64,000 nt of DNA from positions 3,968,001 through 4,032,000 of the forward strand of contig CM030334.1 of assembly GCA_017654855.1 (NCBI GenBank), given 5' to 3'. Numbering within the stretch: position 1 is the stretch's first letter; the number at the start of each line of letters is the position of its first letter. The notes below the pieces were generated by a model. That model was not told the DNA's origin. It worked only from the letters and a program-made list of their open reading frames with translations, and ran no database searches. The translations under genes were made by a program, and so were the position numbers. Of the stretch, positions 37,213-58,351 are shown in pieces. Origin of the DNA: Podospora anserina. Taxonomy: Eukaryota.

Positions 37213-39020
37213 CTAATACACATATCGGAATGTAATGGCCTTGTCGCCCTTCTCAGACAGTTCCTGTTGCGTATAATGACCCAAATCCCCATCCTCCATC
37301 TTCTTTGCCCTCTTCTTGTTGGCGGTGCTATACCCAACTAGCAGGATGAGCGAAGCGACGATACCGGCGCCAATGAACCCAAGTTCCAAACCATGACCGA
37401 GTCGATATCTGGGAGCATCCTTTGCCCGATAAAAGTTGGATGCCATTGCCTTGATATCGTGTTAGTCCTGTTCCCGTAATCAACTTGTTTACTTACACCT
37501 CCCAGGTTTCCGACACCTATTTGGACCGCCATCCCGACTGAACGCTTCAACGACCCTGCCAAGTTGTTGGAGAGCCAAGCAATGACGCCTGGAAAAGCTG
37601 GGTAGATGGCACAAGCTGCGATAAACACTCCGCCATACACCACACGCGGGTTTCCAGACGCGATGCACCTAATCTGGTCAGTTACCTTGTTGTCTCCCAA
37701 AGCAGATGGAAACTCACATGGAAAACCCAACAACCATAATAAGTAATGGAACAATGATGAACGGGCTTCTTCGCCCCACCCGATCGGAAAAGTAAGCCAC
37801 AATGACGGCGAGAATGGCGGCAGTGATGTAGATGGGAACCGTCATGAGCTGCGCGGTGCTGCTCTCATACCCCAACGTGCGAATGATGGTTGGCAAGAAT
37901 AAGCTGATGCCATAGAGCGGGCAGACAATCTTGGAAGTGTTAGCACCGGAGAAATCCAGGGGTTCAGGGGCAACATACCCCCCAGTAAACAAAGATGTTG
38001 ACCCAAATCTGCCAATCCAAAAATGCCTGTCTGACATATTTCCACTTGAAATCATCGGCCTGGGCCACCATAGCGTGATCGTTCCTCTTGCTCTGCCCTT
38101 GATACTTGAGACGGAACACGACAAATGCTCGTTCTTCCTCGGTCAAAAAAGTCGCTGTCTCGGGAAAGTCGTGCAGAGTGAAAAAAGCCAAGACGGCGAC
38201 CAGGACGGTTGCGATGCCTGGGTTGTTAGCTCGCACTCCAAAAAAGCAGGGGTTGACTTACCCTCAAGAATAAAAATCCACTGCCAGCCATGCAGCCCCC
38301 CAACACCATCCATCTTCCCAATGGCAAATGCCAAAAGTCCACTGAATGCGCCGGCGATGGAAGCTGCACTGAAGAACATGGCTTGTCTCAACTGCATCTC
38401 CTCACGCTTGTACCAGTTTGTGAGGTAGTAAGCAACGCCAGGAAACAGACCAGCCTCGGTAACGCCCAGAAAGATGCGAGCTGTCAAGAGTCCGGTAAAG
38501 TTGTGCACGATGCCCATCAAGGTCATCACCACGCCCCACGCAACCATGATGGCTGGCAACCAGATAGAAGGCCTGATCTTTTTGAGCATCAGGTTGCTGG
38601 GAACCTCGAATGCGGCATAGGTGAAAAAAAAGGCTGTGAGACACCAGTTGTATTGGTCATCCGTTAAGCCAAGATCTTCCTGAAGGCCTTTAATTTTGGC
38701 ATTGCCAATGTTACCACCTAAAATAGATTAGAATTGGATACTTAGGGAAATAAGAGATACTGACGATCCAGAAAAGAGAGTAGGTATAGTAGGGTAAGTA
38801 TCGGAATCAAGCGAATATCCATCTATCGATAGTCAGTATACAGGGTCTTCCAATAGTCGGGCATACTTTAGGTATATTCGGTACCTACCTTACAGAGAAT
38901 TACCTTCTCGTTTAAATAAATAAACGACTCTCCTATCCTCTCGATCTCGCTACGTTCTGCTTCCTCAAACTATGAACCGCCATCGTATTTTTCGGACAGA
39001 GCAGCTCCGGGAACACTTAT
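37213..39020 (-). pseudogene. MFS transporter (Tna1/Dal5 anion:cation symporter family) with RIP-destroyed 5' end
   Basis: The 3' exons are intact ('FEVPSNLMLKK', 'EAGLFPG', 'WYKREE', 'GWQWIFILEG', 'FRYVY*'). The inferred start codon reads ATA (39020-39018). An in-frame TAG lies at 38972-38970 where the duplicate copy has CAG. Confidence 0.88.
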
Positions 39021-41924
39021 TTTAATAAGTAGGAGAGGTAACATATAGGTAATTAAATAAATACACTAAAGAGGTAAATCACCCTTCTTTTAATCCCACA
39101 TACCAATATAAGCTTATTTCCTAGCATTCCTTAAATAATAATGTAAATCCCGGGCTACCTCGGTTTGCACGTCCCGCTCCCCCGCATTACGTTCCCCCGC
39201 ATACTTAGCTTATTCCCCGCGATCTTGCCTAGACCGGGCGAAATCGTTAACCTTATTCCCTAAAATCCTACAATTATAATAGTAATTACTACGTCGTTAA
39301 TAGCGCGGGGTATTACTAACTATAACGGAGAAATAGAACTAAGCAGTTAGAAACCTAAAGCCCGATTTAATTTCTAAAAAAAGAAGCTTAAAATGCTAGA
39401 TCCACTATAATAGTAAACGTTTGGCTTTAAGGAAAGGCAGATTAATTAAGAGGGGGTTTTCTTTAAGGTTAAATATAACCGGTTCTTAATTTAATATAAT
39501 TACTATAATAAGGTTAGTATATTCTTTAATTTAGGGCGTATAGGTAATTAAGATAAGAATAAAGGGCTTAGAAAAGAGGTTTTGCATAAAGAATAAACCA
39601 AATAAATCGGCGGGTCTTACAATTTTATAGGTAGTATAAAAGAAAGTATTTCGTTAGGAAAGAAATAGGTCGTTAAAAGCTACTAGATTTACGATTTTAA
39701 GAGTAAATGATTTATATAAAGGTTTTACATAAGACTTAACCGTTAGGGGGAAGCTACTAATAGTGGTATATAGGTTACGGTTAAAGTAAAACTCTAGTAA
39801 CTCTATACTTACTCGTTAAAAGTAAAAGTCTTCTAAATTTTTGGGATATATAGGGATAAAGAAGTATATTTATCGCTATTATAGATAATACTAAATATAA
39901 AAAAATAAAATAAAAAATAATAAAGGTTTAGTTAGCCGTATCTTTAGCCTTCCGGTATAGTATACTTTAATTAAGATAGGAATAAATAAAAAAAAAATTA
40001 AGATTTGCCTAATAAACTAATACAGGTAAATATTATATGCCTAAAGACGAAATAGACTATACTAATATATAAAAGGGGTTCGTTATCGAAGCGTTATATC
40101 TATCCGCTAACTCTAAATAATAAATAAATATTAAAAATATTACTAAGAAGGTAGCCGGTAGCTCGCTTCTCTAAAAGACGGGGCAGAGAGGGACCGACAG
40201 TCTCTCGAAATAATAATATTAGTTTGATCCCGAAGTTAAGCCCCATATATTCCAATCAATAACGCATCGCTAAGGCTCTACTTATGGATCCCCGGGTTAA
40301 CTCCACTAATATTCAGTATCGCAATACTAATAGCGTAATATAGAAACGGAAGGATACCGAAATAATATTTCTACCGTTAAACGGTATATATACGGCTAAA
40401 AGAGTAATAAATAAAATATAAAGAATAGTTATTAAGAGTATTATTAAGCAAAGCCGGTTAAGCCAAAGGCCTAAAAAACGACACTATAGCGGGAGGACTA
40501 CCGAGCGGTGCCGCGAGCACAATCGGGATAGGCGATATACTGGCTGACTAGCATCCTTACTAGGACAGGCGTCGTTCCTTCATAGTTAATACTAATACTT
40601 CGGAACTCCAAAGAATTATATCTGTTCTCTCTCGATATTAATCTTATGTACGTTAACCTACTATAAAGGACGACCCTACACTGGATCCCGAATCAGACTA
40701 TTTCGATGTAACGCGATGGGTACGCTATTTTGTCGGACAACTTAATAAGCAAGGCTATAAAGTAACTAACCTAGGTATTATTTTTCGGGACCTGGATGTC
40801 TTTAGGTCGGGTTTAGCTCTATAGCTTTAAAAGACGGTCGATTTAATTCTTCTCGCTCCCTTTTAACTCGGAGAACTATTCGGTAGTTATAAAAAGGAGC
40901 GGAAGTAAATTCTATATAGTTTTAACGGCTTGCTTAAGAGTAGCGAGCTTCTAGCTATTCTGGGCCGTCCTGGATCAGGATGCAGCACCTTTCTTAAAAG
41001 CCTCTACGGAGAACTGTACGGCTTGGACGTCGGTAAGCGGTCCGTTATTTATTATAATAGCGCCTCTTAGGCTTAAATAAAAAAGGAGTTTAAGGGCGAG
41101 GTTATATATAACCAAGAGGTCGATAAGCACTTTCCCCATCTTATAGTCGGTTAAACCCTTAAATACGCTACTGCAATGCGCACCCCCTCCAACCAGGCCG
41201 AGGGCATATCGAGATCTAAATACTGCTAGTATATCGCCCGCGTCATTATAGCTGTTTTTAGCCTTAGTTATACCTATTACATTAAAGTGGGAAATAACTA
41301 TGTACGAGGTATCTCCGGTAGCGAACGAAAGAGGGTCAGTATTACCGAGATAATGGTGGCCGGCTCTCCCATCTCGGCTTAGGATAATAACACACGAGGT
41401 CTTAACTCGACTTTAGCCTTTAAATTTATTTAGGCCCTTCGACTTTATTTTAATATTATTGGTTCGGTAAATACCGTAGCTATATACTAAGCTAGTTAAG
41501 CTATTTACGACGAATTCGATAAGACAATAGTCCTTTATACCGGCCGTTAAATTTATTTTGGCCCTGCTAATGCGGTAAAAGCTTTCTTTAAGCGTTAGGG
41601 CTAGTTCTGCCCTCCTCGTTAAACCACTAGTGACTTTTTGACATCAGTTACTAACCCCGAAGAACGTATCCCTCGACCTGGTATGGAATAAAAGGTACTA
41701 CGGACGCCCGAGGACTTTAAGTAGTACTAGCTTGCTTCGCCCGAGTTTAAGGCCCTCCAAGAAGAAATGGCCGCGTATGACTAAGAGTTTCAGGGAGAGC
41801 GTCAGATCCAAAGTCTGAGCCATCTGCGAGAGACCAAGAATCACAAGCAGGCCAAACACGTCCGCCAAGGTTCCCCATACATCATCAGCATCCCCATGCA
41901 GATCAAGCACAACACTGTTCGCGC
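38504..41924 (+). repeat. Copy 1 (donor) of a 3,421-bp inverted segmental duplication, RIP-mutated
   Basis: Reverse complement of 54064-57484 with identical length. All differences checked are C>T/G>A, mostly CpA>TpA or TpG>TpA. Strongly AT- and TpA-rich core. Confidence 0.96.
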
Positions 41925-44900
41925 CTACCAGAGGGTTTGGAACGATATCTCGGCCACTCTGGTCAATGTCGGTGCTAATCTGATCCTGGCCCTCATTATC
42001 GGTTCCATTTTTTACGGCAACCCCGATGCCACTGTCGGTTTTGAAGGCAAGGGATCTGTCTTGTTCATGGCCATCCTGTTGAACGCCCTCACCGCCATCT
42101 CGGAAATCGATAGTCTTTACGATCAGCGACCCATTGTCGAAAAACATCACTCCTACGCGTTTTACCATCCCGCCACCGAAGCAGCAGCTGGCATTGTGGC
42201 CGACTTGCCCATCAAGTTTGCTGCGGCTGTCGTGTTCAATCTCATTGCCTACTTTCTAGCCGGCCTTGGCCGGACACCCTCTCAATTCTTTCTCTACTTT
42301 TTGATCTCGTACATTTCGACTTTTGTCATGAGCGCCATTTTCCGGACTCTGGCGGCCATCACCAGAACCGTCTCTCAGGCCATGGCGTTGGCTGGTGTGT
42401 TGGCCTTGGCACTGGTCATGTACACTGGCTACATTATTCCTGTGCCGCAGATGCACCCCTGGTTTGGCTGGATTCGGTGGATCAACCCCATCTACTACGC
42501 TTTCGAGATCCTGGTCGCCAACGAGTTCCACGGGAGGGAATTCACTTGCTCGGACATTATCCCGCCATACTCTCCTCCGCAAGGCTCGAGTTGGATCTGT
42601 GCCAGTGCTGGAGCGGTCGCTGGAAGGCCAACCGTCAACGGAGATGCATACATCTCTGTGGCCTACCAGTACACGTACGATCACGTCTGGAGAAACTTTG
42701 GCATCCTCATTGGCTTCTTGATCTTTTTCATGGGCGTGTATTTTGCCGCCGTGGAGCTCAACTCATCCGTGACAAGCACAGCCGAAGCCTTGGTCTTTCA
42801 GCGTGGCCATGTCCCCTCTCACTTGCAAAAGGGTAGAGATGAAGAGCGCGGGGGAGAGGGCGGTGCTGCGGCGGAAAGGGGAGCTCAAAACCCCGAGAAT
42901 AGTGCCATTGAGCCTCAGAAGGACATTTTCACTTGGAAAGATGTGGTGTACGATATTGATGTCAAGGAGGGCAAGCGTCGGCTGTTGGACCATGTCTCTG
43001 GATGGGTGAAACCAGGTACGCTTACGGCTCTGATGGGCGCTTCTGGTGCCGGCAAGACGACATTATTGGACGTTCTCGCCCAGCGCACCAGCATCGGCGT
43101 TGTCACCGGGGACATGCTTGTCAACGGCAGGCCATTCGGGGCCGACTTTCAACGTCAAACCGGTTATGTGCAACAACAAGGTATGTTTTCTATTTCCCGC
43201 CCTTGCCAACTATTTCTAATCCTGATCAGATCTCCATCTGGATACGGCGACTGTGAGAGAAAGTCTCCGTTTCAGCGCCATGCTTCGCCGCCCCAAGACG
43301 GTTTCCAAAGCAGAAAAGTTTGCGTTTGTCGAAGAAGTCATCAAGATGCTCGGCATGGAGGAATATGCCAACGCTGTTGTTGGTATTCCAGGCGAGGGCC
43401 TCAACGTCGAACAACGAAAACTTCTCACGATTGGCGTTGAACTGGTGGCCAAACCCAAACTGTTGCTGTTCTTGGATGAGCCCACCAGCGGCCTTGACTC
43501 GCAGAGCGCCTGGGCCATTTGCGTCTTTCTGCGTAAGCTCGCCGATGCTGGCCAGGCTGTGTTGTGCACTATTCATCAACCCAACGCCATCTTGTTTCAA
43601 CAGTTTGACCGGCTCCTGTTCCTGGCCAAGGGGGGAAAGACAGTCTACTTTGGAAACATTGGACAAAACTCCAAGTCCCTGTTGGAATACTTTGAGCACC
43701 ATGGAGCCAGGCACTGCGGCGACGATGAGAATCCTGCCGAGTACATGCTCGAGATTGTGGCCGAAGGCGCCAACAATAAGGGCCAGGACTGGCATTCGGT
43801 CTGGAAGAACAGCGACGAGTTCAGGGATGTTCTCGCCGAGATTGACAGGATCCATTCTTCTTCCCAACAAGACACCGTCGCCGCTCCTGCTGCGGGAGAG
43901 CCAAACTCGGAGTTTGCCATGCCGTTCCATGCGCAGGTTTGGGAGGTGACACGGCGCATCTTTCAGCAGTACTGGAGAATGCCGGGATATGTCCTGGCCA
44001 AGTTCGCACTGGGAATCATGTCCGGCCTCTTTATTGGTTTCACCTTTTACCAAGCCGACGGGACTCAGGGTGGTATGAGAAATATTGTTTTTGCCGTGTT
44101 CATGGTCACCACCATCTTTACCACACTTGTGCAGCAGGTTCGTTCACCTATCAACTGTTTGAAGTGTCCACCAGCTTACTGACTGTTAAAAGATCCAACC
44201 CCTCTTCATCACCCAACGATCTCTCTACGAAGTTCGTGAGCGCCCTTCCAAGGCGTATTCCTGGAAGGCGTTCCTCATCGCCAATATCGTCGTCGAGATT
44301 CCCTATCAGATCCTCACGGGCATACTCACATATGCGTGCTTTTACTATCCCGTTGTCGGCACAGGCCAGACATCTTCCCGCCAGGGCCTCATCCTGCTCT
44401 TCATCATCCAGCTGTTCATATACGCCAGCGCCTTTGCGCACATGACCATCGTCGCCATGCCGGATGCCCACGCCGCAGCTGGCATCGTCATCCTCCTGAC
44501 AATGATGAGCACCATCTTTAGCGGTGTGCTCCAGACGAGAATCGCATTGCCCGGGTTTTGGGTGTTTATGTACTACGTCAGCCCGTTCACATACTGGATC
44601 AGCGGAATCGTGTCGACTGTGCTGCACGAGAGGCCAGTCGAGTGCTCCGTGTCGGAGACCTTGATCTTTGACCCGCCCCAGGGAATGAACTGCGCGCAGT
44701 ATCTCTCTCCCCTGGCCGGACAGGGTTCAGGCTCACTTCAAAACCCCTTCGACACTGAAGGGTGCAGGTATTGCGGGTTTGGCGTTGCGGACCAATATCT
44801 CGCCGGGGTCGACATCTTTTGGGAGGACAGGTGGAGGAATTTTGGAATCATGTGGGCGTATATCGCGTTCAACATTGCGGTTGCCATTGGAGTTTATTAC

Positions 44901-44933
44901 ATCTTCAGGGTGAGAAAGATGACAAAGAAGTAA
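40582..44933 (+). pseudogene. Pleiotropic drug resistance (ABCG/PDR) transporter: 5' part RIP-inactivated, 3' part intact
   Basis: NBD1 is still legible through many TAA/TAG stops: 'DDPTLDPE', Walker A '[13 protein letters not shown]' at about 40959, '[13 protein letters not shown]'. From about 41795 on the frame is open: TMD1, NBD2 '[11 protein letters not shown]', 'LNVEQRK', '[12 protein letters not shown]', TMD2, two introns (about 43182-43229 and 44138-44192), stop at 44933. Start position approximate. Confidence 0.93.
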
Positions 44934-45031
44934 ATCGTAGAGATAAGAGATAGACGTAATCTAGAGCTTAATTCCTAATAGTACCCTTTATGCCTACTCC
45001 CGCACATCCCTAACCCCCGGGTTCTCATGGT

Positions 45032-45490
45032 CTAGATTGTCGTCGCTGTTGGCACAGCTATGGTGCTGATGCCGCTGGGGCCGCCAGGGCCTACACCAGG
45101 ATATCGCAGCCCGGCATATCTCGCCACAGCAGCATCGCTCATGTTGGAGATGACGAGCGTTCCATCTCCAATGAGGTGGAGATTGCCCTGCGTCCTGGTC
45201 CAGTTGTTGTTTTTGCGTCCAGCAGCTTCGCGAGCCAGCTCCTCCTCAATCTCGCCAACGCAACTGCTGCTCAGCTCGTGGATAACGGCCATTTTGTAAT
45301 TGGCGATGAGTGTCATTGGATTCTTGAGCTGGGGCTGGCAGGCGGGGTCAAAGGTCTGCCAGCAGGGAGCAGGAGGGAGGTATCCGAGTGCCAGTTCGGG
45401 GTCGTACATTGGCGAGCATCTCTTGGTGAGATGCGAGCTGGCAGCCGCCGTGGCTGTGGCGGCCAAGGAGAGGAAAGTGATGAGTTGCAT
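45032..45490 (-). CDS. Small secreted protein (152 aa) with a KR processing site and 4 Cys
   Basis: Signal peptide MQLITFLSLAATATAA, then 'LTKR|CSP...PAPCWQTFDPAC'. Good start context (ACCATG). Intronless. Confidence 0.75.
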   Translation of the reverse strand: MQLITFLSLAATATAAASSHLTKRCSPMYDPELALGYLPPAPCWQTFDPACQPQLKNPMTLIANYKMAVIHELSSSCVGEIEEELAREAAGRKNNNWTRTQGNLHLIGDGTLVISNMSDAAVARYAGLRYPGVGPGGPSGISTIAVPTATTI

Positions 45491-46008
45491 GGTGAAGATG
45501 TTTGAAGTTGCGTGGCTGGTTCAGTTGACACGGCCGATGATGGACGCTCCCAAGGTGGTCTTTATATCATGATTTCAAAGAGACAATCTAAAAAAAGAAA
45601 GATGCATTCCAATGGCTTGGCTGGCTCATTTCCCGCATGGAGAAACACGAGCTTTACGCTGAACGGGGCGCCGGGTAAATCGGCCTATCTTTTCGAGCGA
45701 GGGATTCAGGCATACACGATGTTCAGAACGCAGTCAGATGCTGTCGGACATGGTTCTTGCCCGCCAATGTCACGTCAAATGTCAAAAACACCGACGGAGA
45801 AGAGTGAAAAACGGCTGTCCTCCTCCGATGCCTGTTCTAGTATTGCTCGGCATGCTTGTAGTGTCGTAGCGAATCCTCCATGCAACTGTTTCACGTCTAA
45901 ATACGAACTAAAAACGCATGTATGGCTCTTGTTCGCTGCTGCCTACGTAAAAGGATTTTGACAAGTATTATTATGCTATTACATCTATCACCTAATGATA
46001 TCATACAT

Positions 46009-48402
46009 TCAGGCAACCCATTTCTTGCCCATACCCTTCTTGCTCCACTGGTGGCTGCCGCCGGTGCCGGTTCTCTTCTTCTCCTCAAACAACTTCTTGC
46101 TCAGTTGCTTGTACACAAACGTGCCTTGCGAGTTGTAGCGGATGCTGTGGTCAGAGTCGGTAAACCAGGTCACCTCGAGCTTCTCTGGGCTGACGCGGTC
46201 TCCCATCAGCAGATCAGCGAGGGCGGCAGCGTTCTGAAAGTGAACATTGTCATCGCCGGTTCCGTGCTGAATCAGGAAGCCACCGGCAATCTTCTTGAAG
46301 CCGTCCGTGTTGTGCACCGCCGACTTGTTGTATCCAGCAGCGTTGAGCGCGGGTGTCTTCATATATCTCTCGGTGTACATGGTGTCGTAGAAGCGCCAGT
46401 CCGAGACGGGAGCGGTGGCGATACCCAGAGAGATGATGGGATCGCCAATTTCGACCACCTTAGCCGTGAGATACCCACCATACGACCAGCCCCAGATACC
46501 AATCTTGGAGGCATCAACCCACGGATTTTTGGCCAGCCACTTGGCGGCCCAGATCTGGTCCTGGGCCTCAAGATCACCCAGGTTGGAGGCAACCGCGGAA
46601 CGGAAAGCGCGGCCCTTGAGACCGGTGCCACGGTTGTCAACAGTAAAAGTGATGTACTCGAGCTCGGGATCGGAAGCAATATAGGCGTTCCAGCCAAAAG
46701 ATTGCATTCCCTTGTTGACCTGCTGAGCACCGGGGCCGCCATAGGGAGTCAACAAGACGGGGTACTTCTTGTCGGGAGAAAAGTTGGCGGGGAGACGGAG
46801 CATGGCGTTGAGCTTGAAGCCGGAAGGGTGGTCAAGTTCGTGATACGTAATGTTGGGAAGCTTGTACTCCTTGAGGTTGTTGAGGAGACGGTCATTGTTG
46901 TTGATGACGCGGAGGGGGGTCTTGGAGTCGATCTTGTAAAGTTCTTGGTAGGGGACGTTGGGGCCGGCATATCTCAGGATGTAATAGCCACCGCCGGTGG
47001 AAAATGAAGCGGACCAGACGGCAGAAACCTTGTCGTCGACCAATGGAGTCTTCTTCTTGGTGATGTAGGAAACCGAGTAAATGTGACGCTCTGTGCTGTG
47101 GCGCTCTGTGGACGTGTAGTAAATCAGTCCTCTGGAGGTGTCGATCTTGTTGATACCGGTAACCTCCCAGCTGCCCGATGTAAGAGCAATCTTGTCCTTG
47201 CCGTCCACCGAGAAGAGGTAGATGTGGTTCCACCCCGACTCGTCCGACAAGTCAAGGTAGTACTCCTTTTCGTCGTCTTTGCCCTTGCCCTTGCCCTTGC
47301 CCTTTGCCTTGCCTTTTCCTTTGCCCTTTTGCTCCGTGATGGAGCCGATGAAGCTGATGGCCGCGTTGTTGTCGAGCCAGCCGTCGGATCCATCACGCTG
47401 GCGGGTGAGGGTGGAGGTCTTGGTGGTGGTGTCAACAACCACGAGCTTTTCGTGGTCCTGAACACGGTTGAAAGCGCGGTAGATGACCTTGTCGTGCTCC
47501 TCGGTCAACCAAGCAACCTCGCCAATGATCAAGTCATCGGCTGCCCACGCAGTAACAGGAATCTCGGTCGTCTTCTTGTCCTTGACGCTCAAGAGGTGGA
47601 AGGCCACGGTGGGGTTGGTGGTGCCGACCTTGGGATACCTCAGCTCCAGCTCACGGGGATAGGCCGGGGCGACCTTTTGGTTGTCCATAAAGTAAGGGAT
47701 CGTGAAGGTGTCGACTCCGGTCTCGTTGAAGCTCAGGTAAGCAATATACTCGCCGTCGGGAGAATACCAGAGCGCATGGTCGGTGCCAAAGATTTCCTCC
47801 TCGTAGACCCAGTCGGGAACAGCGTTGAAAAGATCAGGGCCGCCGTTGGTGGTGATCTGGCTGATGGTGCCATTGTCCCAGAGGAAGAGGTTGTTGCCCT
47901 GGACAAAGGCAATCTGGGAGGACGACGCAGGGTTCCAGGTAGCATACTGGATATCACCCTTGGAACCAGGCACGAGCTGCTGGGTCTGCCCGGTGGTCAC
48001 ATCCTGGACCAGGTAGTTGGCAAAGTACGAGTGACGATACTGCTTAGTATAGTCGACAGCCCACAAGACCTTGGTCTGGTCGTGGGAGATGGAGTAGTCC
48101 CAATAGTCGGCGGGGATCTTGCTGGAGGCGAGGAATGTGGTCTTGTTGCCGCTGGCGACGTTTTCAAAGACAAGCGATCCGTCGGAGGCGAGGGTGATGA
48201 AGTCGCCGTCGTTGTCGGTCTGGGCCCAGGTGATTCCGGTGGTGGACACAGAGAGAGCGCCGGGGCTGCCCGTGGTGACATTGTACGTGAGCAGCTTGGA
48301 GCCGCCTCCGACGGGCTGGTGGGGGGGGCGAGGTGGGTCGATGGCTGAGACGGCGCCCAACAGGGCGGCGGCAGCGCCGACGAGAGCTGCGACGCGCTGC
48401 AT
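46009..48402 (-). CDS. DPP4: Secreted dipeptidyl peptidase IV (S9B)
   Basis: Signal peptide from Met at 48402. 'DWVYEEE', nucleophile 'GWSYGG', Asp 'GTGDDNVH', His 'DSDH'. Intronless. Confidence 0.95.
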   Translation of the reverse strand: MQRVAALVGAAAALLGAVSAIDPPRPPHQPVGGGSKLLTYNVTTGSPGALSVSTTGITWAQTDNDGDFITLASDGSLVFENVASGNKTTFLASSKIPADYWDYSISHDQTKVLWAVDYTKQYRHSYFANYLVQDVTTGQTQQLVPGSKGDIQYATWNPASSSQIAFVQGNNLFLWDNGTISQITTNGGPDLFNAVPDWVYEEEIFGTDHALWYSPDGEYIAYLSFNETGVDTFTIPYFMDNQKVAPAYPRELELRYPKVGTTNPTVAFHLLSVKDKKTTEIPVTAWAADDLIIGEVAWLTEEHDKVIYRAFNRVQDHEKLVVVDTTTKTSTLTRQRDGSDGWLDNNAAISFIGSITEQKGKGKGKAKGKGKGKGKDDEKEYYLDLSDESGWNHIYLFSVDGKDKIALTSGSWEVTGINKIDTSRGLIYYTSTERHSTERHIYSVSYITKKKTPLVDDKVSAVWSASFSTGGGYYILRYAGPNVPYQELYKIDSKTPLRVINNNDRLLNNLKEYKLPNITYHELDHPSGFKLNAMLRLPANFSPDKKYPVLLTPYGGPGAQQVNKGMQSFGWNAYIASDPELEYITFTVDNRGTGLKGRAFRSAVASNLGDLEAQDQIWAAKWLAKNPWVDASKIGIWGWSYGGYLTAKVVEIGDPIISLGIATAPVSDWRFYDTMYTERYMKTPALNAAGYNKSAVHNTDGFKKIAGGFLIQHGTGDDNVHFQNAAALADLLMGDRVSPEKLEVTWFTDSDHSIRYNSQGTFVYKQLSKKLFEEKKRTGTGGSHQWSKKGMGKKWVA
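47278..47328 (-). repeat. In-frame hexanucleotide microsatellite encoding a Lys-Gly tract in DPP4
   Basis: (GCCCTT)n-like repeat on the + strand, encoding KGKGKGKAKGKGKGKGK. Confidence 0.8.
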
Positions 48403-48649
48403 GGTGTTGACGTGGGAGGAGGGGAAACTGGGAGCGCCTGCCGAGAGCAAGAAACGAAAGCGACAGCATCTCTTGGTTTTAAGGTTCGGATCGACAATCT
48501 CCTGCCCGGAAGGGAAAGCCGGGTCTAGCATCCGAGGACGGCAGGTATGTTGTTCAACGTCCCATTCAGATGACATAATCAAGGCCCGATCCAGAAGGTG
48601 GTTTATAAGTGGGCGCGCCAAGCAATGGGAAGCATAATTTGTCAATTAA

Positions 48650-50017
48650 TTAATCTCTGAGCCAGCCCTTGGGACCGCCCCAGGTGCCTTTAACCATATA
48701 TTTGTAGTATACCCAAGGAAAAAAGTCCTTCTTCAAGTGATAAAATGCCCGTCTCGGCACCGCCTGGTCAATCCTCAGCGCCTTTCCAAACGTCTCCTTG
48801 GGTACGCCGCCGTACTTGAACTCGGCCAGCAGCACCTTGCCGTACTCTGTCAACAGCGGGCACGATGTGTAGCCGTCATACTCCTCGTCCGCCTCCTTGC
48901 CCCTCATTGACCTCAGCACATTCTTGACCAGAACCGGCGCTTGCGCCGTGATGGCTGCGGCCGTCTTGGACGTGGGCAAACTGGAAGCATCTCCGGCACT
49001 CCACACATTCTTCCACTTTTTGTGCCGGAGCGTCTCTTCGTCGACATCGACAAACCCAGCCTCGTTGGCAAGAGGACTGGATTTGACAAAGGCGTGAGCG
49101 CCCATCTTGGGAGTGACGTGCATCAGGTCAAACTTGCGGGTGAGCTTCTGGTTCTCGCCATGGCTAAACACGGCATCGTTGCCGTTGATTTCGACCAGAT
49201 CATGCGCAAACAGTCCCTCTACTCCTCTCTCTTTCCGCAGCTTTTCCAGCACGGCAGAGTACTTGGGAACGCCAAACATGACGGGAAGACCGGTCGCGAA
49301 TGTGATGTGGATGGGCGATGACGAGGGGTTTGCTGGGTCGTAAAGACCGGATTTCTTCCAGTGATCAAGGGCAAGCCACATGATCTTTTGAGGAGCGCCG
49401 GCGCACTTGACAATACCCATCGGCTGGGTGAAAATGGCCTGGCCGCCCTTGAGAGCCTTGATGGTGCGATCCGCCTTGTCGCACGTGTCGTAGCCGTAGA
49501 TGGAGGAGACGCCCGAATCTGGGTTGGAGAGGGCATCATGAAGCCCCTTGATGCTGTTGAAGTCGACCTTGATTCCGGGCACCACGACGAGATGCTCATA
49601 GGTGAGCTTGTCACCGTTGTCGAGAGTGACAGTGTTGGAATCTGGCGAGAAGGATGACAACTCTGTATTGTAGAATCGCAGCTTGGGATCGATCAAACTC
49701 TTGAGTGGTTTCCTGAGCTGCTCCTTATTCTTGAGACCGCCGCCCACCAGGGTCCATCCGGGCTGGTAGTGATGCCATTCTGCCGGGTCGACAATCGCAA
49801 TGTCGTCTTGGGAGAATTTCCCCTTGCGCAGGAGCTGGTGGCTGATGGTCAGACCAGCTGAACCACCGCCGACAACGACGACCTTGTGATTTCTGGTGGT
49901 GGGGGTGACATTGGCGACACTCGCAAAAGTGCGCACGGCAGCCGGGGCCAGTTGCGTGATGACTGAGCGGCGGGCAGCACAGGCTGCTGTGGTGACTAAT
50001 AGTTGACTGCTGGACAT
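48650..50017 (-). CDS. SQOR: Mitochondrial sulfide:quinone oxidoreductase (SQOR/Hmt2 family)
   Basis: 455 aa. Arg/Ala/Thr-rich presequence, FAD motif 'VVVVGGGSAG', 'HHYQPGWTLVGGG'. Both catalytic Cys motifs present: 'VKCAGAPQK' and 'YDGYTSCPL'. Confidence 0.95.
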   Translation of the reverse strand: MSSSQLLVTTAACAARRSVITQLAPAAVRTFASVANVTPTTRNHKVVVVGGGSAGLTISHQLLRKGKFSQDDIAIVDPAEWHHYQPGWTLVGGGLKNKEQLRKPLKSLIDPKLRFYNTELSSFSPDSNTVTLDNGDKLTYEHLVVVPGIKVDFNSIKGLHDALSNPDSGVSSIYGYDTCDKADRTIKALKGGQAIFTQPMGIVKCAGAPQKIMWLALDHWKKSGLYDPANPSSSPIHITFATGLPVMFGVPKYSAVLEKLRKERGVEGLFAHDLVEINGNDAVFSHGENQKLTRKFDLMHVTPKMGAHAFVKSSPLANEAGFVDVDEETLRHKKWKNVWSAGDASSLPTSKTAAAITAQAPVLVKNVLRSMRGKEADEEYDGYTSCPLLTEYGKVLLAEFKYGGVPKETFGKALRIDQAVPRRAFYHLKKDFFPWVYYKYMVKGTWGGPKGWLRD

Positions 50018-50845
50018 GTTGGGATGGTGATGACGGGATGTCTGTCAAACGGAGGTCTGAGATCTCAGATCCAGGAACAGGAGAGGTGCGTGCTGAATGA
50101 GATGGAGGACAAAGAGCTGAAATGGTGTGCTCGAGCGTGAGCGAATTACCCAGCGGAGACGGCCAAATGTGGAGCAAGTCGCCGAGTCCCGGAGCTGTGA
50201 AACTTTTCTTGTCGCCGATCGAGTTGACTGCACTTGTGATGACTCGGCCACCGGGTGAGCAAGTTTCTCTTCCTCCCATGGTACTCGGTCGGCGAAAACA
50301 GACATTCCACACATCCGATGAAATTTTTCTCCCGGGCCGAGCCACCCGGTTAGTCACAGCGTTGCAATAATCGCCGTCTCTACGGCTGTCGGTGGCAGTC
50401 GGCGGCGTCGGAACTCGGCGGATGATGGGCATCGTGGTGCTGAAAAACGGTTTCTAAGGAGAAAAAGCTGAATATGGCGAGATCAATCAGTGAGTGAAGT
50501 GGCTTCTCTTTTCTTCATCATATCAACAAGCTGGCGTCGACGACGATGATTTCTTGATGTCGCCGTTGACGATGGCCGATAGACAGCGACGCCGGCAGCA
50601 CAGACCACCAGTTGCCGGGCCGCTGTAAGTCACCCGGAGGTGGTGCCACGATGGACTGACGGCGATATCACGGGCCAGGATTCCCAGCTTAACCCCCATG
50701 TTTCTTGCCTCCCGGTAATGCCCAGTAGGCCGGCGTCTGCAACATCCCTGCAACACTTGTCATACACAAAGCTTAAACAGACCGACTCCCATCCCCACTG
50801 ATCAGTGTGTTGTCCTTGCCCTCACCCACGCTCACCGAGACCACC

Positions 50846-52045
50846 ATGAACACCCTTCAGGTACAGCAATGCGTTGAAAACGCCATCAGATGCCAGGCGA
50901 CCAGCCGCCTGCTCCTCACCCCCCTGGTCATTTCTTCGCTTCGACTTCCACGCACCCAACTTTTCTACCACTCTCAACGTCGGTCTTTCCACCGAGCGGC
51001 GGCAGGGAGACCCTGTTGTCGACAATCTCAAAATCCACCTCGACTGTCTCAATGTCTACTACGCAAGACCTACTCTTCAGCTACTCCCCCTGCTCCGTCA
51101 GAACCTACCATTCATCCAGTCTTTGAACAGAGAACTGGCACTTTTCAATATCTAGTCGTCGATCCAGTGACCAAGGACGCAGTCATTATCGACCCTGTTT
51201 TGGACTACGACAAGTGCAGCACCACCATTACCACCACCACGGCTGACGGCCTCCTGTCTTTGGTCCGTGAAAAGGGATACAGGATCGTGCGCATTCTAGA
51301 GACCCACGCCCATGCCGATCACTTGACTGCTTCCTTTTACCTCCAACGGCAGCTGGTCAAGCAGCAGGACCTGAAACCCCCCGTGGGCATCGGCAAGCGG
51401 ATTGGACAGGTACAGACCTTGTTTGGGCAGAGATATGGGATCGACGCCAAAGAGTATGAAGGTGTTTTCGACAAACTGTTCGAGGACGATGAAGAGTTTT
51501 CTATTGGAACGTTAAAGGCAAAAGCCCTGCATCTTCCCGGCCACACCCCAGATCATTTGGGATACAAGATCGGAGGTCTGTCTCCTTTTCCCTTTCGACG
51601 TAAAGAACCCTGCTAACTTGGATGCCCAGACAATATTTTTTGCGGAGACTCCATCTTCCACACTGACATTGGCACGGCAAGGTGTGATTTTCCCGGCGGA
51701 TCGGCCCACGCCTTGTATCAGTCAGCCCGTAAGATCTTGTCTCTGCCTGATAATGTCAAGATCTGGACCGGGCATGACTATCCACCCGATGGTTTGAGAG
51801 AGCCTGTGCCATTTGTCACCGTTGGCGAGCACCGCCAGAAGAACAAGCACCTGAGAGATGGCGTAACTGAAGAGGAATTTGTCAAGATGAGAAAGGAAAG
51901 AGACGAGCATCTGGCTGCCCCAAGACTGCTGCATGAGAGTCTACAGGTGAATGTGAGAGCTGGAAGATTGCCAAGTCAAAACGACTCCGGCATGAGGTTG
52001 TTAAAGGTGCCTGTCAAAGTCAAGGGAGCTGGAGCATGGCAGTAG
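50846..52045 (+). CDS. Persulfide dioxygenase (metallo-beta-lactamase fold, ETHE1/Blh-like) with a mitochondrial-type presequence
   Basis: Exons 50846-51575 and 51630-52045 (GT-AG, GCTAAC branch site). Motifs 'IIDPVLDYD', 'ILETHAHADH', 'PGHTPDH', 'CGDSIF', 'GTARCDFPGG', 'GHDYPP', 'PRLLHESLQVNVRAG'. Confidence 0.92.
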
Positions 52046-52523
52046 GTGGGTGGAAATTGCAAAAGCATGACCAGGCCGACGACTTGTGTAACTCGTACTG
52101 CTACGGTCCTTTCACAGCCGTGATTGTCACTATCGGCAAGACCTCACCGTGGAGGCAGGAGAAGGTGGCGGCGTACGTGACTGCGTCCGTGGGGTTTTTG
52201 GCTCTTCTCCATGCTTGCCCATGTCTGTCTCTATCAAGAGCTTTGTTTTCTGTTCCCGGGCATGGATCATTCAGAAGATGGCATGCTGTCCCAGTCACTG
52301 GTTGAAGATGGAGGGAATATACGATTCGTAGCTTGGCTAATGGACAATTCTTTTATGGGCAATATGCTATCTAAATGTGGTATAAAACCACCTGCAATGA
52401 TGCATATTGAGTGCGCTGCGTCCTTGTGACTTTTATAAGCCGCTGATTGGAATGTTGACATGAGGACAGGTACCATCCACCTCAAGCCTACGCTGAATTC
52501 TAAATTCCTAGAGACGTAGAGAT

Positions 52524-53496
52524 CTAAATCTGGTCCTGAAAACTATCAGCCGCCGGTTGCTCGGTAGCCTTCATTGCAGCATCATGAGCATCCACGTTCC
52601 ACTCTTTCGGGATCTTCCGAAATTGAACAGCCATGTTCCTCTCCTTGGCTTTCTCAATCTCACCCAACAAAGCCTCCCATAAATCCCTGTTCGCGACGTC
52701 CCCCCCCTTGCTCGTTTTTCTATTGCTTTTCGATCCAAGTTTCGGCCCATGTGGTAGAGCCCTCAACCACATACTTGGAATTGATAGCGATGACAAGTGT
52801 GCGGAAACCTTCTTCGTTGGGTCCGAATTCAAAACGCAGGGTGGCAAGGGCAGCGCGAAGCTCCGCCCGGTTGCTGGTCTGGGAGCCATCGTCGCCAAAA
52901 GGCCACTTCCTTTCCAGGCGAGCAGAAACGATTTTTGGGTAATCCTGGTCGGGCGCGCGGGCATGTACAAGGGCCCAGCCTGCCTTTGGGTCCGGTGTGC
53001 GACGGTCGAGACATGTCCCAGCGATGAAGATCAGGGCGGTGAAGGCATCAGTCCGGTGAACGTATCTGCGAGATTGCATTTTAGCCAGCATAATATCACC
53101 CTGTTCAGGGGGGAACTTACTTGAGGAGACCATTTTTCGGCCGAAAAACCTTAAATAAGTCGGTAGGGGTTGCTGAAGCAGACGGGTGGGTAAACTCGGT
53201 AGGGAAGACAAGACCGGCGCCTTTTCTCCACTCCAATTCATTGAGTCTGGTAGCTGGATCCAACGTTCTGGGTTGTTGTTGTTGATGTTTGTCTCTGGGA
53301 AATGCTGCGGAGTTTTGGAAAAGAGGAATGTCAGGTCTTGCGGGTTGTTCAAGTGGAAATGGGTTTCTGAACAACAACCAGAGATATGGAAGCTGGGGGC
53401 AGACCTGTGGCATGCCTGCCATACGCTCAACATTGAGTGCCAGGTGTGACTGCGGTCTGATGATATGTTGTCGTAAGTAAGGTAAGAACGAGGCAT
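52524..53496 (-). pseudogene. Fungal RNase H-domain gene, degenerate
   Basis: 'QTSNRAELRAALATL', 'EGFRTLVIA', 'VANRDLWEALLGEIE', 'IPKEWN'. Catalytic motifs are altered (DGAC-like reads AGTC; TDS-like reads INS). A frameshift in an A-run at about 52722-52730 splits the domain. 5' limit uncertain. Confidence 0.78.
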
Positions 53497-53704
53497 TCGG
53501 ATCTAGCACACCAGACAGGGTCCAGTCCCACCTCTCTGGACAGATTCTCATTCAGCCATGGGTGGGTCTTTCGTTGCAAATCTTTTAGGATTACCTGCCC
53601 GGTTCTGAATGTCAAAGTATTATCATCGATTCGGGGCTTCAGCAAGGTGTCAGGGTTACCACGCGCTTTGGGCAAGCGGGAATCCACAAAGGTGTTTTCA
53701 TGCT

Positions 53705-54063
53705 TTAACGTCTGACTGCGATTCGTTGAGACTTCTTGACTATACTTTCCGTGTCTCTTCTACTGGTCTTGTCCTGGAAACCTGGTCCCTCAACAATTAT
53801 TGCACACTGAGATTCACATTCTTTTTCCATACGAGGAACAAAATCCTTGATTTTTCTACTTCTCATCTCGTAGTTGATTTTGTACCTCTCCAGCATCCCA
53901 GCTTCCACCGTTATGCCAGTATACTGCCCAGCCCAACGTCGACTCCGATCCACCTGCATGCCCTGTTTCGCGTCCATTTCACCGCCAGCTGAGATGCCAG
54001 GGAAACAAATGCTATCCAACCAGAACGTCGACGTCCCTGTAGCCAATGACAGGCTGGCAGCCT
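53705..54063 (-). pseudogene. Probable 3' part of a gene split by duplication copy 2
   Basis: The open frame (AASLSLATGTSTFWLD...) joins in frame with the ORF upstream of 57485 when the duplicated block is removed. Confidence 0.5.
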
Positions 54064-57000
54064 GCGCGAACAGTGTTGTGCTTGATCTGCATGGGGATGC
54101 TGATGATGTATGGGGAACCTTGGCGGACGTGTTTGGCCTGCTTGTGATTCTTGGTCTCTCGCAGATGGCTCAGACTTTGGATCTGACGCTCTCCCTGAAA
54201 CTCTTGGTCATACGCGGCCATTTCTTCTTGGAGGGCCTTGAACTCGGGCGAAGCAAGCCAATACTGCTCAAAGTCCTCGGGCGTCCGTAGCACCTTTTGT
54301 TCCATGCTAGGTCGAGGGATACGTTCTTCGGGATTAGTAACTAATGTTAAAAAGTTATTAGTAGTTTAACGAGGAGGGCAGAACTAGCCTTAACGCTCAA
54401 AGAAAGCTTTTACCGCATTGGTAGGGCCAAAGTAGATTTGACGGCCGGCATAAAGGACTGTTATCTTATCGAATTCGTCGTAAATAGTTTAACTGGCTTA
54501 GTATATAGCCACGGTATTTACCGAGCTAATAATATTGGAATAAAGTCGAAGGGCCTAGATAAATTTAAGGGCTAAAGTCGAGTTAAGACCTCGTATACTA
54601 TTGTCCTAAGCCGAGATGGGAGAGCCGGCTACCATTATCTCGGCAATACTGACCCTCTTTCGTTCGTCACCGGAGATACCTCGTACGTAGTCATTTCCCA
54701 CCTTAGTGTAATAGGTATAACTAAGGCCAAAAACAGCCATAACGACGCGGGCGATATACTGGTAGTATTCAGATCTCGACATGCCCTCGGCCCGGTTAGA
54801 GGGGGTACGCATTACAGCGGCGTATTTAAAGGTTTAACCGACTATAAGATAGGGAAAATACTTATCGACCTCTTAATTATATATAACTTCGCCCTTAAAC
54901 TCCTTCTTTATCTAAGCCTAAAAGGCGCTATTATAATAAATAACGGACCGCTTACCGACGTCCAAGCCGTACAGCTCTCCGCAGAGGCTCTTAAGAAAGG
55001 TGCTGCATCCTAATCCAGGACGGCCCAGAATAGCTAGAAGCTCGCTACTCTTAAATAAACCGTTAAAACTATATAAAATTTACTTCCGCTCCTTTTTATA
55101 ACTACCGAATAGTTCTCCGAATCGAAAGGGGGCGAGAAAAACTAAATCGACCGTCTTTTAAAGCTATAGAGCTAAACCCGACCTAAAAACATTTAGGTCC
55201 CGAAAAATAATACTTAGGTTAGTTACCTTATAGCCTTACTTATTAAATTATCTAACAAAATAGCGTACCTATCGCGTTATATCGAAATAATTTAATTCAG
55301 GATCTAGTATAGGGTCGTCCTTTATAGTGGGTTAACGTATATAAGATTAATGTCGAGAGAGAATAGATGCGATTCTTTAGAGTTCCGAGGTATTAGCATT
55401 AACTATAAAGGAACGACGCCTGTCCTAGTAAGGATATTAGTCAGCCAGTGTATCGCCTATCCCGATCGTACTCGCGGTACCGCTCGGTGGTCCTCCCGCT
55501 ATAGTATCGTTTCTTAGGCCTTTAGCTTAACCGGCTTTACTCGATAATACTCCTAACGACTATTCTTTACATTTTATTTATTACTCTTTTAACCGTATAT
55601 ATACCGTCTAACGGTAGAAACGTTATCTCGGCATCCTTCCGTTTCTATATTACGCTATTAGTATTGCGATATCGAATATTAGCGGAATTAACCCGGAGAT
55701 CTATAAGTAGAGCCTTAGCGATACGTTATCGACTGGAATATGTGGGGCTTAACTTCGGGATTAAACCGATACTGTTATTTCGAGAGACTATCGGTCCCTC
55801 TTTACCCTATCTTTCGGAGAAGCGAGCTACCGGCTACCTTCCTAATAACATTTTTAATATTTATTTATTATTTAGGGTTAGCGGATAAATATAACGTTTC
55901 GATAACGAACCTCTTTTATATATTAGTATAGTCTATCTCGTCTCTAGGTATATAATATTTACCTATATTAATTTATTAAGTAAATCTTAACTTTTTTTTC
56001 GTTTATTTTTATCTCGATTAAAGTATATTATGCCGGAAGGTTAAAGATACGGCTAATTAAATCTTTATTATTTTTTATTTTATTTTTTTATATTTAATAC
56101 TATCTATAATAGTAATAAGTATACTTCTTTATCCTTACATATCCTAAAAATTCAGAAGACTTTTGCTTTTAGCGAGTAAATATAGAGTTACTAGAGTCTT
56201 GCTTTAACCGTAATCTATATACCACTATTAGTAGCTTCCCCTTAACGATTAAGTTTTATATAAAACCTTTATATAAATCATTTACTTTTAAAATTATAAA
56301 TCTAGTAGCTTTTAACGACCTATCTCTCTCCTAACGAAATACTTTTTTCTATACTATTTATAAAATTATAGGACCCGCCGATTTATTTAGTTTATTCTTT
56401 ATATAAAATCTTTTTTCTAGGCCCTCCATTCTTATTTTAATTACTTATACGCCCCAAATTAAAGAATGTACTAACCTTATTATAGTAATTATATTAAATT
56501 AAAAACCGGTTATACTTAACCTTAAAGAAAACCCCCTCTCAATTAATCTGCCTTTCCTTAAAGCCGAACGTCTGCTATTATAGTGGATCTAGCATTTTAA
56601 GCTTTCTTTTTTAAAAACTAAATCGGGCTTTAGGTTTTTAGTTATTTAGTTTTATTTCTCCGTTATAGTTAGTAATACCCCGCGCCACTAATAACGTAGT
56701 AATTATTACTATAGTTATAGGATTTTAGGGAATAAGGTTAACGATCTCGCCCGGTCTAAGCAAGATCGCGGGGAATAAGCTAAGTATGCGGGGGAATATA
56801 ATGCGGGGGAGCGGGACGTGTAAACCGAGGTGGCCCGGGATTTGCATTATTATTTAAGGAATGCTAGGAAATAAACCTATATTAGTATATAGGATTAAAA
56901 GAAAGGTGGTTTACCTCCTTAGTATACTTATTTAATTGCTTACATATTACCTCTCCCACCTATTAAAATAAGTGTTCCCGGAGCTGCTCTGTCCGAAAAA

Positions 57001-57484
57001 CACGATGGCGGTTCACAGTCTGAGGAAGCAGAACGTAGCGAGATCGAGAGGACGGGAGAGTCGTTTATTTATTTGAACGAGAAGGTAATTCTCCGCAAGG
57101 TAGGTACCGAATATACCTAAGGTATGCCCGACCATTGGAAGACCCTACATACTGACTATCGACAGATGGACATTCGCTTGATTCCGATGCTTGCCCTGCT
57201 GTACCTACTCTCTTTTCTGGATCGTCAGTATCTCTTGTTTCCCCAAGTGTCCAATTCTGATCTATTTTAGGTAGTAACATTGGCAATGCCAAAATTGAAG
57301 GCCTTCAGGAAGATCTTGGCTTGACGGATGACCAATACAACTGGTGTCTCACAGCCTTTTTTTTCACCTATGCCGCATTCGAGGTTCCCAGCAACCTGAT
57401 GCTCAAAAAGATCAGGCCTTCTATCTGGTTGCCAGCCATCATGGTTGCGTGGGGCGTGGTGATGACCTTGATGGGCATCGTGCA
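54064..57484 (-). repeat. Copy 2 (inserted) of the 3,421-bp inverted duplication, RIP-mutated; carries 5' fragments of the ABC and MFS transporter genes
   Basis: The ABC fragment ends abruptly at '...KHNTVRA' (54064) and the MFS fragment at '...TLMGIV' (57484). Unrelated sequence lies on both sides. Same AT/TpA-rich RIP pattern as copy 1. Confidence 0.96.
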
Positions 57485-58139
57485 TGTTTGCAGTTGAAAG
57501 TGCAGGTTTGAGTTGGAATCCTGGTGACAACAGGAAGGAATCAGCCACAGAAGAGGCATAGGCTGCCGAAGGGATTGACGGAAATGCAGCCGTGTTGGAA
57601 CAGGCGGGGCGTTGATTGCGGTGGCTTGGTTGTTGCTGGAAAGTTGAGCCTTGTTTCAACCATTGTTCAAAGTCATCCAGCACATCTTGAAAACAGTTGA
57701 AAATGGCGGTGAAATAGGTATGGTTTGGATCACACGGGCTTGACACCTGAAGAGCCTCATCGATTTTCCCCTGAATAAACCTTTGCTGAGAAAAGAGCGT
57801 GCGTTACTCCGACACACGTTCAGCAAATTCGGATGCTTTGTCGTAATGAATACAGGGCGGCCGCTGGTGTCCTGGAAAGAGGACATCCCAGATGTGATAC
57901 CACCCCCTTGTTGCATCAAGACGGCCCTGTCCTTTCTCCTTGAGGACTGCCCATTGTTGTGGTGTTACTCGTAGAAGATCAACATCTAGGGTCAGCTGAC
58001 AGTTGGCGTGGCATACATGGTCAGGACTCGGAACAGTTTTGCAACCCAGGCTGCAAGTGGGCGCGTTGGAGGTGAGTTTGAACATCAGATACATTTCGAA
58101 GCTTTTTGTCTCGGCAGGCTTTGTGGGTGACGTGGCCAA
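57485..58139 (-). pseudogene. 5' part of a gene interrupted by duplication copy 2; conserved fungal 'WY.IWD.LFPG..RP' motif family
   Basis: 'VTPQQWAVLK...WYHIWDVLFPGHQRP'. In-frame TAA at 57806-57804, after which the same frame continues to the breakpoint (…ALSTAN). Confidence 0.6.
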
Positions 58140-58351
58140 AGTTTCACGGGTCTAGCCTAACAGACAGCCCGCTCATGGAAACCAATACAGTTTGATGATC
58201 AAAACGGACTGACCGAAACGTGCCTCACCACCAGGCCAAATCTGGAATCTAATAAACAAGGACGCAGAACAGTTGCTTCCCAAGTAAACAAGCATCAATG
58301 TTTATCCAGACACGGAAGGCTGCGGTATTACTCTCCCACGATATCCAACAT

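Follow-up and report, generated by a model that had tools for sequence, protein, structure and literature searches.

An inverted duplication spanning the 5' ends of two transporter genes bears the footprint of repeat-induced point mutation in one sequenced strain of Podospora anserina

Mutation of host genes that is triggered by their own duplication is textbook knowledge for Neurospora, where repeat-induced point mutation (RIP) also has a known spreading, heterochromatin-linked branch. RIP can leak into single-copy genes that lie beside repeats, for example the effector genes of Leptosphaeria maculans. For Podospora anserina, the process was described by Hamann 2000 and Graia 2001, as cited in PMC13449251, PMC2441463 and PMC10787394. 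Orthologues of RID and DIM-2 were reported for this species, together with a very weak laboratory activity that affected at most 2% of cytosines in unlinked duplications (PMC2441463). A different source characterised P. anserina RIP as highly effective in nature (PMC8092012, 2021). The mutations were stated to occur mostly at CpA:TpG and CpT:ApG in PMC13449251 (2026), citing Hamann et al. 2000. The same paper reported nwd6/nwdp-2, a P. anserina host gene that is duplicated in some strains, with a heavily RIP-mutated copy and a parent gene that is pseudogenised in some; its authors interpreted this as a duplication that triggered RIP of both copies. The present analysis concerns a stretch of 64,000 nt of P. 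anserina contig CM030334.1 (assembly GCA_017654855.1, positions 3,968,001 to 4,032,000), referred to as the window, and all coordinates are positions in it. The window contains two inverted copies of a segment that comprises the 5' ends of an MFS and an ABC transporter gene. An earlier interpretation made from the letters alone, the sequence-only reading, had proposed that this duplication triggered RIP and destroyed both transporters. The results make it very probable that a local inverted duplication of host DNA was followed by RIP of both copies.

The two arms were termed copy A (38504-41924) and copy B (54064-57484). A repeat search returned them as an inverted pair of 3421 nt each, 91% complementary and separated by 12,139 nt, and as the sole long repeat of this kind in the entire window. 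Together with an ungapped alignment of copy A to the reverse complement of copy B, this confirmed the equal-length reverse complements about 12.1 kb apart that had been noticed before. The alignment contained 298 differences, all of them transitions (154 A/G and 144 C/T), without a single transversion or indel. Homology ended abruptly, with only 5-6 of 20 bases agreeing outside each repeat end. The differences were distributed evenly along the repeat at 16-23 per 200 nt and became sparse at the edges, with two in the first 200 nt and six in the last bin. The composition of the arms deviated strongly from their surroundings. GC content was 0.387 in copy A and 0.391 in copy B versus 0.49-0.54 in the flanks and the spacer. 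The TpA/ApT ratio was raised in both arms, with values of 1.41 and 1.34, respectively, compared with 0.52-0.70 in the surrounding DNA, and (CpA+TpG)/(ApC+GpT) was 0.59-0.60 compared with 1.29-1.33. No further 1-kb bin of the window resembled the arms in GC content or RIP indices.

A word index of public sequencing runs was queried with positions 50000-59999. Among the 20 indexed runs with the same organism label, only X1 held 0.98 of the words. The other 19 runs, originating from six studies, held 0.70, a value explained by the flanks, which alone give 0.66, and by the unmutated margins of copy B, which equal the wild-type locus. One additional small run held 0.03 of the words. Contigs of X1 and of X4, X3 and X15 (three studies) were compared with positions 51000-60500 at 80% likeness. 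In X4, X3 and X15, one long contig each matched 51000-54062 and 57481-60500 with no differences in 6,083 nt. These contigs joined 54062 directly to 57481 and skipped 3418 letters, with a 3-letter TGC overlap that fits either side. The same three contigs carried a segment 12.1 kb away and on the opposite strand that matched 54064-57484 with 409-410 differences and no gaps. It was single-copy at flank depth. Adenine in the window corresponded to wild-type guanine at 222-224 sites and thymine to wild-type cytosine at 186 sites, with one A>T change in two strains. The direction from G/C in the wild type to A/T in copy B was thus followed by 410 of 410 differences in X4 and by 408 of 409 in X3 and X15.

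The run X1 showed the filled state. Its depth at the empty-site joint was 0, and each repeat contig was present in two versions, one identical to copy B and the other, corresponding to copy A, differing at 47-69 positions per contig. Repeat contigs had depths of 106-122 and flanks of 107.6-108.6. The spacer formed a unitig of 12,199 nt, its 12,139 nt being extended by 30 nt into either arm. From a loose end at 57484, the sequence continued into the MFS flank of copy A, and another contig, starting from 57455, reached the flank of copy B. The duplication and its mutations are strain-specific, as the sequence-only reading had considered likely at the strain or species level. Words of copy B occurred in one of 20 runs, and all three strains compared had the empty site and an intact, unduplicated MFS-ABC locus that did not carry the same stops. 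In all four compared runs, 18-35-nt matches to unrelated contigs were seen at 53166-53289 and 56489-56523. One of them falls in the AT-rich promoter part of copy B, and these matches are probably due to simple or low-complexity sequence.

Relative to the wild type, copy B carried 410 (409-410) changes and copy A about 424 by derivation, all or nearly all of the C:G>T:A type, with about 268 sites mutated in both. With an implied wild-type GC content of 0.511, the conversions amount to approximately 24% of G:C pairs and 12% of all positions per copy. Of the 298 sites that differ between the arms, 156 have the A/T state in copy A and 142 in copy B. The contexts of these differences were CpA (133), CpT (102), CpG (10) and CpC (10), and the neighbouring base also differed at 43 sites. 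Counting only sites with a C retained in one or both copies, the share hit in one copy was 0.52 for CpA, 0.22 for CpT, 0.12 for CpG and 0.05 for CpC. The sequence-only reading had described transitions in CpA/TpG context. The transitions were found without exception, but CpA accounted for only about half of them and CpT was a second target. The order of CpA before CpT agrees with the published preference of P. anserina RIP. The sequence-level features of a RIP footprint that were examined were all observed, namely C:G>T:A transitions, the preference for CpA and then CpT, mutation of both copies at largely independent sites and unmutated unique flanks.

Within ABC codons 1-433, the ancestral state of CpA/TpG sites was deduced from Gln, His, Trp, Met and Cys codons with the help of the intact protein of conspecifics. 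Of 58 such sites, 32 were mutated in both copies, 10 in copy A only, 9 in copy B only and 7 in neither, so that 72% of them were hit in copy A and 71% in copy B. Independent mutation would give 29.7 shared hits, close to the 32 observed (Fisher p=0.20; 58 sites), and the result fits two copies that mutated largely independently. Along either copy, C>T and G>A changes followed one another in random order without clustering (runs test, z 0.86 and 0.23). In Neurospora, a random order of the two strand types suits several rounds of RIP better than a single round. The order seen here may therefore be a weak hint at several rounds.

The mutations ended short of the repeat borders. Going inward from the repeat ends, the outermost differences between the arms lie at 161 nt (the first) and 142 nt (the last). 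Among the differences listed between copy B and the wild type, the first change was 197 nt inside the ABC end, and at the MFS end the first inferred change, G73S, was about 208 nt inside. ABC residues 434-480 were unaltered in both copies. The unmutated margin at each repeat end therefore measures 140-210 nt. No RIP-type change was detected outside the repeat: none of the 6,083 flank letters of copy B differed from the three strains, and RIP indices were normal everywhere outside the arms, including the spacer. The non-duplicated 3' parts of both genes had been described as clean, which was verified for ABC residues 481-900, where two predicted proteins of conspecifics matched with 0 mismatches and two others with 1-2 mismatches at an exon edge, and for the downstream MFS exons, which had no RIP-type change.

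Copy A is the RIP-mutated native locus, because both genes run on from it into clean single-copy DNA. The MFS gene, an orthologue of Pa_3_10840 (509 aa in relatives), is encoded on the minus strand at 37216-39044. Searches with relatives' proteins in tblastn traced it from 39044 or 39020 down to 37216. Its 5' 541 nt (38504-39044) belong to the repeat and comprise codons 1 to about 143, or 139 in the numbering of the shorter models, and two introns; the exons below 38504 are clean. The ABC gene, an orthologue of Pa_3_10830 of the PDR (ABCG) type with about 1440 aa, occupies 40486-44930 on the plus strand. Codons 1-480 (40486-41924) lie inside copy A and the part from codon 481 onward is intact; codons 1 to about 898 form a single exon according to tblastn. 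The shared divergent promoter region between the genes (39045-40485; 1.44-1.47 kb in the tblastn layout) is the most AT-rich part of the repeat, with a GC content of 0.31 in 39001-40000. In copy B, the corresponding fragments are ABC codons 1-480 at 54063-55502 on the minus strand, ending at the insertion junction, and the MFS 5' end at 56944-57484 on the plus strand, truncated at the other junction.

Domain annotation with Pfam was based on the intact ABC orthologue P0125, which showed ABC_trans_N at residues 40-120, ABC_tran, the first nucleotide-binding domain (NBD1), at 144-303, ABC2_membrane at 472-681 and PDR_CDR at 694-779. Codons 1-480 cover ABC_trans_N, NBD1 and the first residues of the first transmembrane domain (TMD1). 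On the long open reading frames (ORFs) of the clean part, from 41785 to about 44930 on the plus strand, ABC2_membrane, PDR_CDR, ABC_tran and a second ABC2_membrane followed. The (NBD-TMD)x2 domain order is that of full-size PDR (ABCG-type) transporters, but the reading frame is not intact in the strain of the window. After codon 433, the native gene has a long open frame on the plus strand (41785-43440) that covers TMD1, NBD2 and TMD2. The MFS_1 profile was matched by the window ORF 38143-38727 on the minus strand (1.2e-21) and by residues 61-434 of the orthologue P0259 (3.4e-41). The repeat contained no transposon domain, transposase-like ORF or terminal repeat in Pfam searches of its ORFs and in the repeat search. 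The tblastn and Pfam results thereby corroborated the proposed content of a transposon-free segment holding the 5' end of an MFS gene, a divergent promoter and the NBD1 part of an ABC gene.

Database searches with the clean ABC part retrieved full-length PDR transporters, and the best cluster consisted of Pa_3_10830 orthologues. Intact ABC proteins were present in six species of the P. anserina complex and in Triangularia setosa. Predicted ABC proteins of 984 and 952 aa were considered as truncated alleles and rejected, being first-exon ORF calls with an intact N-terminus. Searches with the clean MFS part retrieved Pa_3_10840 orthologues. Complete MFS models of 509 aa were found for P. pseudoanserina, P. 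pseudopauciseta, P. pseudocomata and T. setosa, and shorter ones for P. anserina S, P. comata and P. bellae-mahoneyi. The 436-aa models of P. anserina S and P. comata (P0135, P0136) hold stretches unlike all relatives. These older models look mis-spliced and the gene itself would not be degenerate, since the window DNA and the 509-aa models of the sister species give a conserved protein throughout. A frameshift near 38075 had been suspected from overlapping ungapped tblastn pieces and the odd 436-aa models. It was rejected because the DNA, read directly, had a continuous frame with a 3-codon difference from T. setosa and gave no sign of an earlier pseudogenisation. More distant MFS relatives were named nicotinic-acid or tartrate transporters by their sources. 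These names suggest a member of the Tna1/tartrate-transporter-like group that is not evidently a drug pump.

The consequences were most severe for the ABC gene. Codons 1-480 were interrupted by 24 in-frame stops in copy A and by 22 in copy B, with the last stop of copy A at codon 433, and the start codon was ATA (M1I) in both. Altered residues numbered 93 in copy A and 97 in copy B; 62 positions were altered in both, 60 of them identically. The example that the sequence-only reading had quoted at about 41716 was exact: ABC codons 411-415 translate to F K stop Y stop in copy A, and copy B gives F E Q Y W. For the MFS gene, loss of the start codon to ATA in both copies had been claimed. This is correct for the ATG at 39020/56968, the start of the S-strain model, but not for the upstream ATG at 39044, which is the start in newer models of relatives, lies eight codons earlier and is kept in copy A while being ATA in copy B. 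The native MFS gene carried a nonsense mutation at codon 25 and about 15 changed residues in the N-terminal tail, TM1 and exon 3, and the GT..AG borders of both introns were kept. In the MFS fragment of copy B, both candidate starts were ATA and the exons contained no stop. In this strain, both native genes have most likely become null, whereas they are intact in other strains. The stops and lost starts agree with the double gene knockout that had been proposed, but the predicted loss of the MFS gene is less absolute than that of the ABC gene, because a single nonsense codon, missense changes and the scrambled promoter are its basis. The case for an ABC knockout is accordingly the stronger of the two.

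The empty site of the other strains reads ...gcagcc TGCA tgtttgc..., and in the filled site the insert is bordered by TGC at either end. At the left junction (54063-54065), this TGC, of which the empty site has one occurrence, also agrees with the donor end at two of its bases. At the right junction (57481-57484), TGCA is common to the donor end and the target site, giving a 4-nt microhomology. The donor ends thus have 2 nt (GC) and 4 nt (TGCA), respectively, in common with the target, and both ends of the insert fall within coding exons. The insertion is intergenic, since the insert is located 3' of a MgsA/WRNIP1-type AAA+ ATPase gene (58352-60355, minus strand) and 5' of an RNase H-domain ORF (52720-53502, minus strand). 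The flank 57481-60500 containing the ATPase gene is identical in the other strains. The RNase H-domain ORF, a weak domain match (E 8.6e-06) directly upstream of the insertion site, is also identical in other strains and is thus a resident gene and not part of the duplication event. Microhomology-mediated template switching and break-induced replication (FoSTeS/MMBIR) yield nearby inverted insertional duplications. The copy described here resembles such products in being inverted, near its source, joined through 2-4 nt of microhomology at both junctions and free of mobile-element features. The mechanism is not demonstrable from the sequence alone, and the 3-nt target duplication would also suit the fill-in of a staggered break with end joining. 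The junction microhomology, the inversion, the source at 12 kb distance, the exon-internal ends and the lack of mobile-element features are consistent with template switching during replication or with the local repair of a break.

Under the favoured sequence of events, a 3.4-kb chromosome piece would have been copied in one lineage of the P. anserina complex and inserted in inverted orientation at an intergenic position 12.1 kb away, with no transposon involved. RIP, through the RID and/or DIM-2 pathway, would have recognised the two homologous segments in later sexual cycles. Cytosines on both strands of both copies would have been deaminated independently, at CpA first and CpT next, and mutation would have stayed within the repeat, sparing its ends, the flanks and the spacer. 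The native ABC gene with 24 stops and no start, the MFS gene with its codon-25 stop and the shared scrambled promoter would then have been lost together. Action of RIP on both linked copies was the central claim of the sequence-only reading, and 410 changes in copy B, about 424 in copy A and a transition to transversion ratio of 298:0 between them bear it out. Its view of RIP as 'friendly fire' on ordinary host genes was likewise supported, though this has already been described in P. anserina.

Several points weigh against this account. Conversion of about 24% of G:C pairs, compared with at most 2% of cytosines in the laboratory, needs many sexual generations or a much stronger action on linked repeats; the intensity at the locus sides with the reported effectiveness in nature (PMC8092012) and not with the weak laboratory figure. 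An estimator based on visible sites expects 44 shared sites, whereas 268 were derived. This mismatch is regarded as an artefact of site heterogeneity and unmutated margins, since the direct test on 58 sites fits independence. For the same reason, an excess of shared mutations through gene conversion or a two-stage history was dropped as an explanation. The counts of 268 shared sites and 424 changes in copy A were obtained by arithmetic and not site by site, with 40 of 560 difference rows listed. The contig comparison covers three of the 19 runs without copy-B words. Loss of function, and any loss of expression, is a prediction from the sequence of the two genes. Finally, X1 may be the source sample of the assembly, in which case it gives no independent replication of the two copies, and its contigs extend over each junction by only 30 letters, one below the bridging criterion. 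An assembly artefact, with one real copy and a second arm created by mis-assembly, would draw on exactly these last two points, the sole run with copy B and the short contigs. It is nevertheless extremely improbable, as arms that differ at 298 sites are neither a collapsed nor a cloned copy, X1 holds both versions as separate contigs at single-copy depth (106-122 vs 107.6 in the flank), and junction-spanning ends exist for the flanks of both copies. The RIP footprint itself requires two copies.

A laboratory origin, in which transforming DNA integrated ectopically and RIP followed in laboratory crosses, has a slim chance of being correct. The species is a model that can be transformed, and engineered duplications have served to study its RIP (PMC2441463); only one run carries the allele, and short junction microhomology is also expected from the end-joining of transforming DNA. 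Against this, neither junction contains vector, marker or foreign sequence and the flanks are identical to the wild type. An inverted insert 12.1 kb from its source would be unlikely for random integration in a genome of tens of Mb and is typical of local template switching or break repair. Precise deletion of an ancestral duplication in the other strains, with mutations caused by ordinary divergence or other deamination, could have been mediated by the short direct TGC flanking copy B. This is hardly conceivable given that the native locus of the other strains is unmutated, that virtually all of the 409-410 differences run from G/C to A/T in the window copy and that six species of the complex and T. 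setosa have an intact ABC protein, several of them also having complete MFS models. Nor do the 298:0 ratio and the dinucleotide preference suit ordinary divergence. Capture by a transposon, such as a Helitron, a pack-type or a giant Starship-like element, would be in line with reports that such elements move host genes in Podospora (PMC8092012) and with the 3-nt duplication flanking the insert. The repeat contains just two gene 5' ends and a promoter, ORF and repeat scans of the window revealed no terminal repeats or transposase-like ORF, and the segment is single-copy in three other strains and ends inside coding exons, which leaves this origin with next to no probability.

The single-copy spacer (41925-54063; 12,139 nt) has no RIP footprint and is identical to the three other strains over 51000-54062. 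Besides the RNase H-domain ORF, it encodes a DPP-IV/S9 peptidase (46009-48645, minus strand), a pyridine-nucleotide oxidoreductase (48650-50044, minus strand) and a metallo-beta-lactamase-fold protein (50777-51616, plus strand). An NWD-type NLR gene was located at 6871-10649 on the plus strand, with NACHT_N and NACHT domains and, after them, an array of about 11 tandem WD40 units of 126 nt that share 93-95% identity. The array had a GC content of 0.68 and a TpA/ApT ratio of 0.03. These near-identical repeats of about 1.4 kb show no RIP footprint; the duplication in which 71-72% of CpA sites are mutated is 28 kb away. The gene fits the WD40 NLRs with 'high internal conservation' described for Podospora (PMC13449251).

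No literature naming Pa_3_10830 or Pa_3_10840 was found. The event was not described by title or abstract among the matches listed, and supplementary tables of population-genomic papers could list it. The locus illustrates the cost of genome defence at base resolution, as one accident of replication or repair together with RIP would have removed two transporters and their promoter, while 19 other sequenced samples of the same organism are without words of the inserted copy. Because the unmutated donor and the empty site are kept in conspecifics, the locus can be used to calibrate RIP in Podospora with respect to per-site rates by context, independence of the copies, edge effects and lack of spreading. 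It also offers a natural double knockout for probing the roles of the Pa_3_10830 and Pa_3_10840 orthologues. Tentatively, and with considerable doubt, it might constitute a rare natural before-and-after record of RIP, with near-saturation on a linked inverted duplication, hard edges and no spread in the 12-kb spacer. If so, RIP in the wild (71-72% of CpA, 24% of G:C) would exceed the laboratory figure by an order of magnitude, the margins of 140-210 nt would put numbers on the homology-sensing window in vivo, and the spreading, heterochromatin-linked branch would be weak or absent in Podospora.

In its general features, the locus resembles RIP as known from Neurospora crassa and P. anserina, with C:G>T:A transitions only, mutation of both copies, AT enrichment and an excess of TpA. 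As in these systems, the mutations stayed within duplicated DNA that exceeds a few hundred bp. The locus differs from laboratory RIP of P. anserina in extent, since each copy had about 24% of its G:C pairs and 71-72% of its CpA sites converted, compared with at most 2% of cytosines in unlinked duplications (PMC2441463). In place of a transposon or transgene, a natural linked inverted duplication of host genes was hit here. Like the leakage in L. maculans, host genes were damaged as a by-product of RIP, but the damage lies wholly within the duplicated segment and none occurs in the flanks. In contrast to nwd6/nwdp-2, which is an unlinked duplication of an NLR gene, the present one is linked (12 kb), inverted and partial, with the empty site and the junctions resolved to the base. 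It affected two unrelated transporters at once because the duplicated piece spans their divergent promoter. The locus is a new and well-resolved instance of a known process and not a new mechanism.

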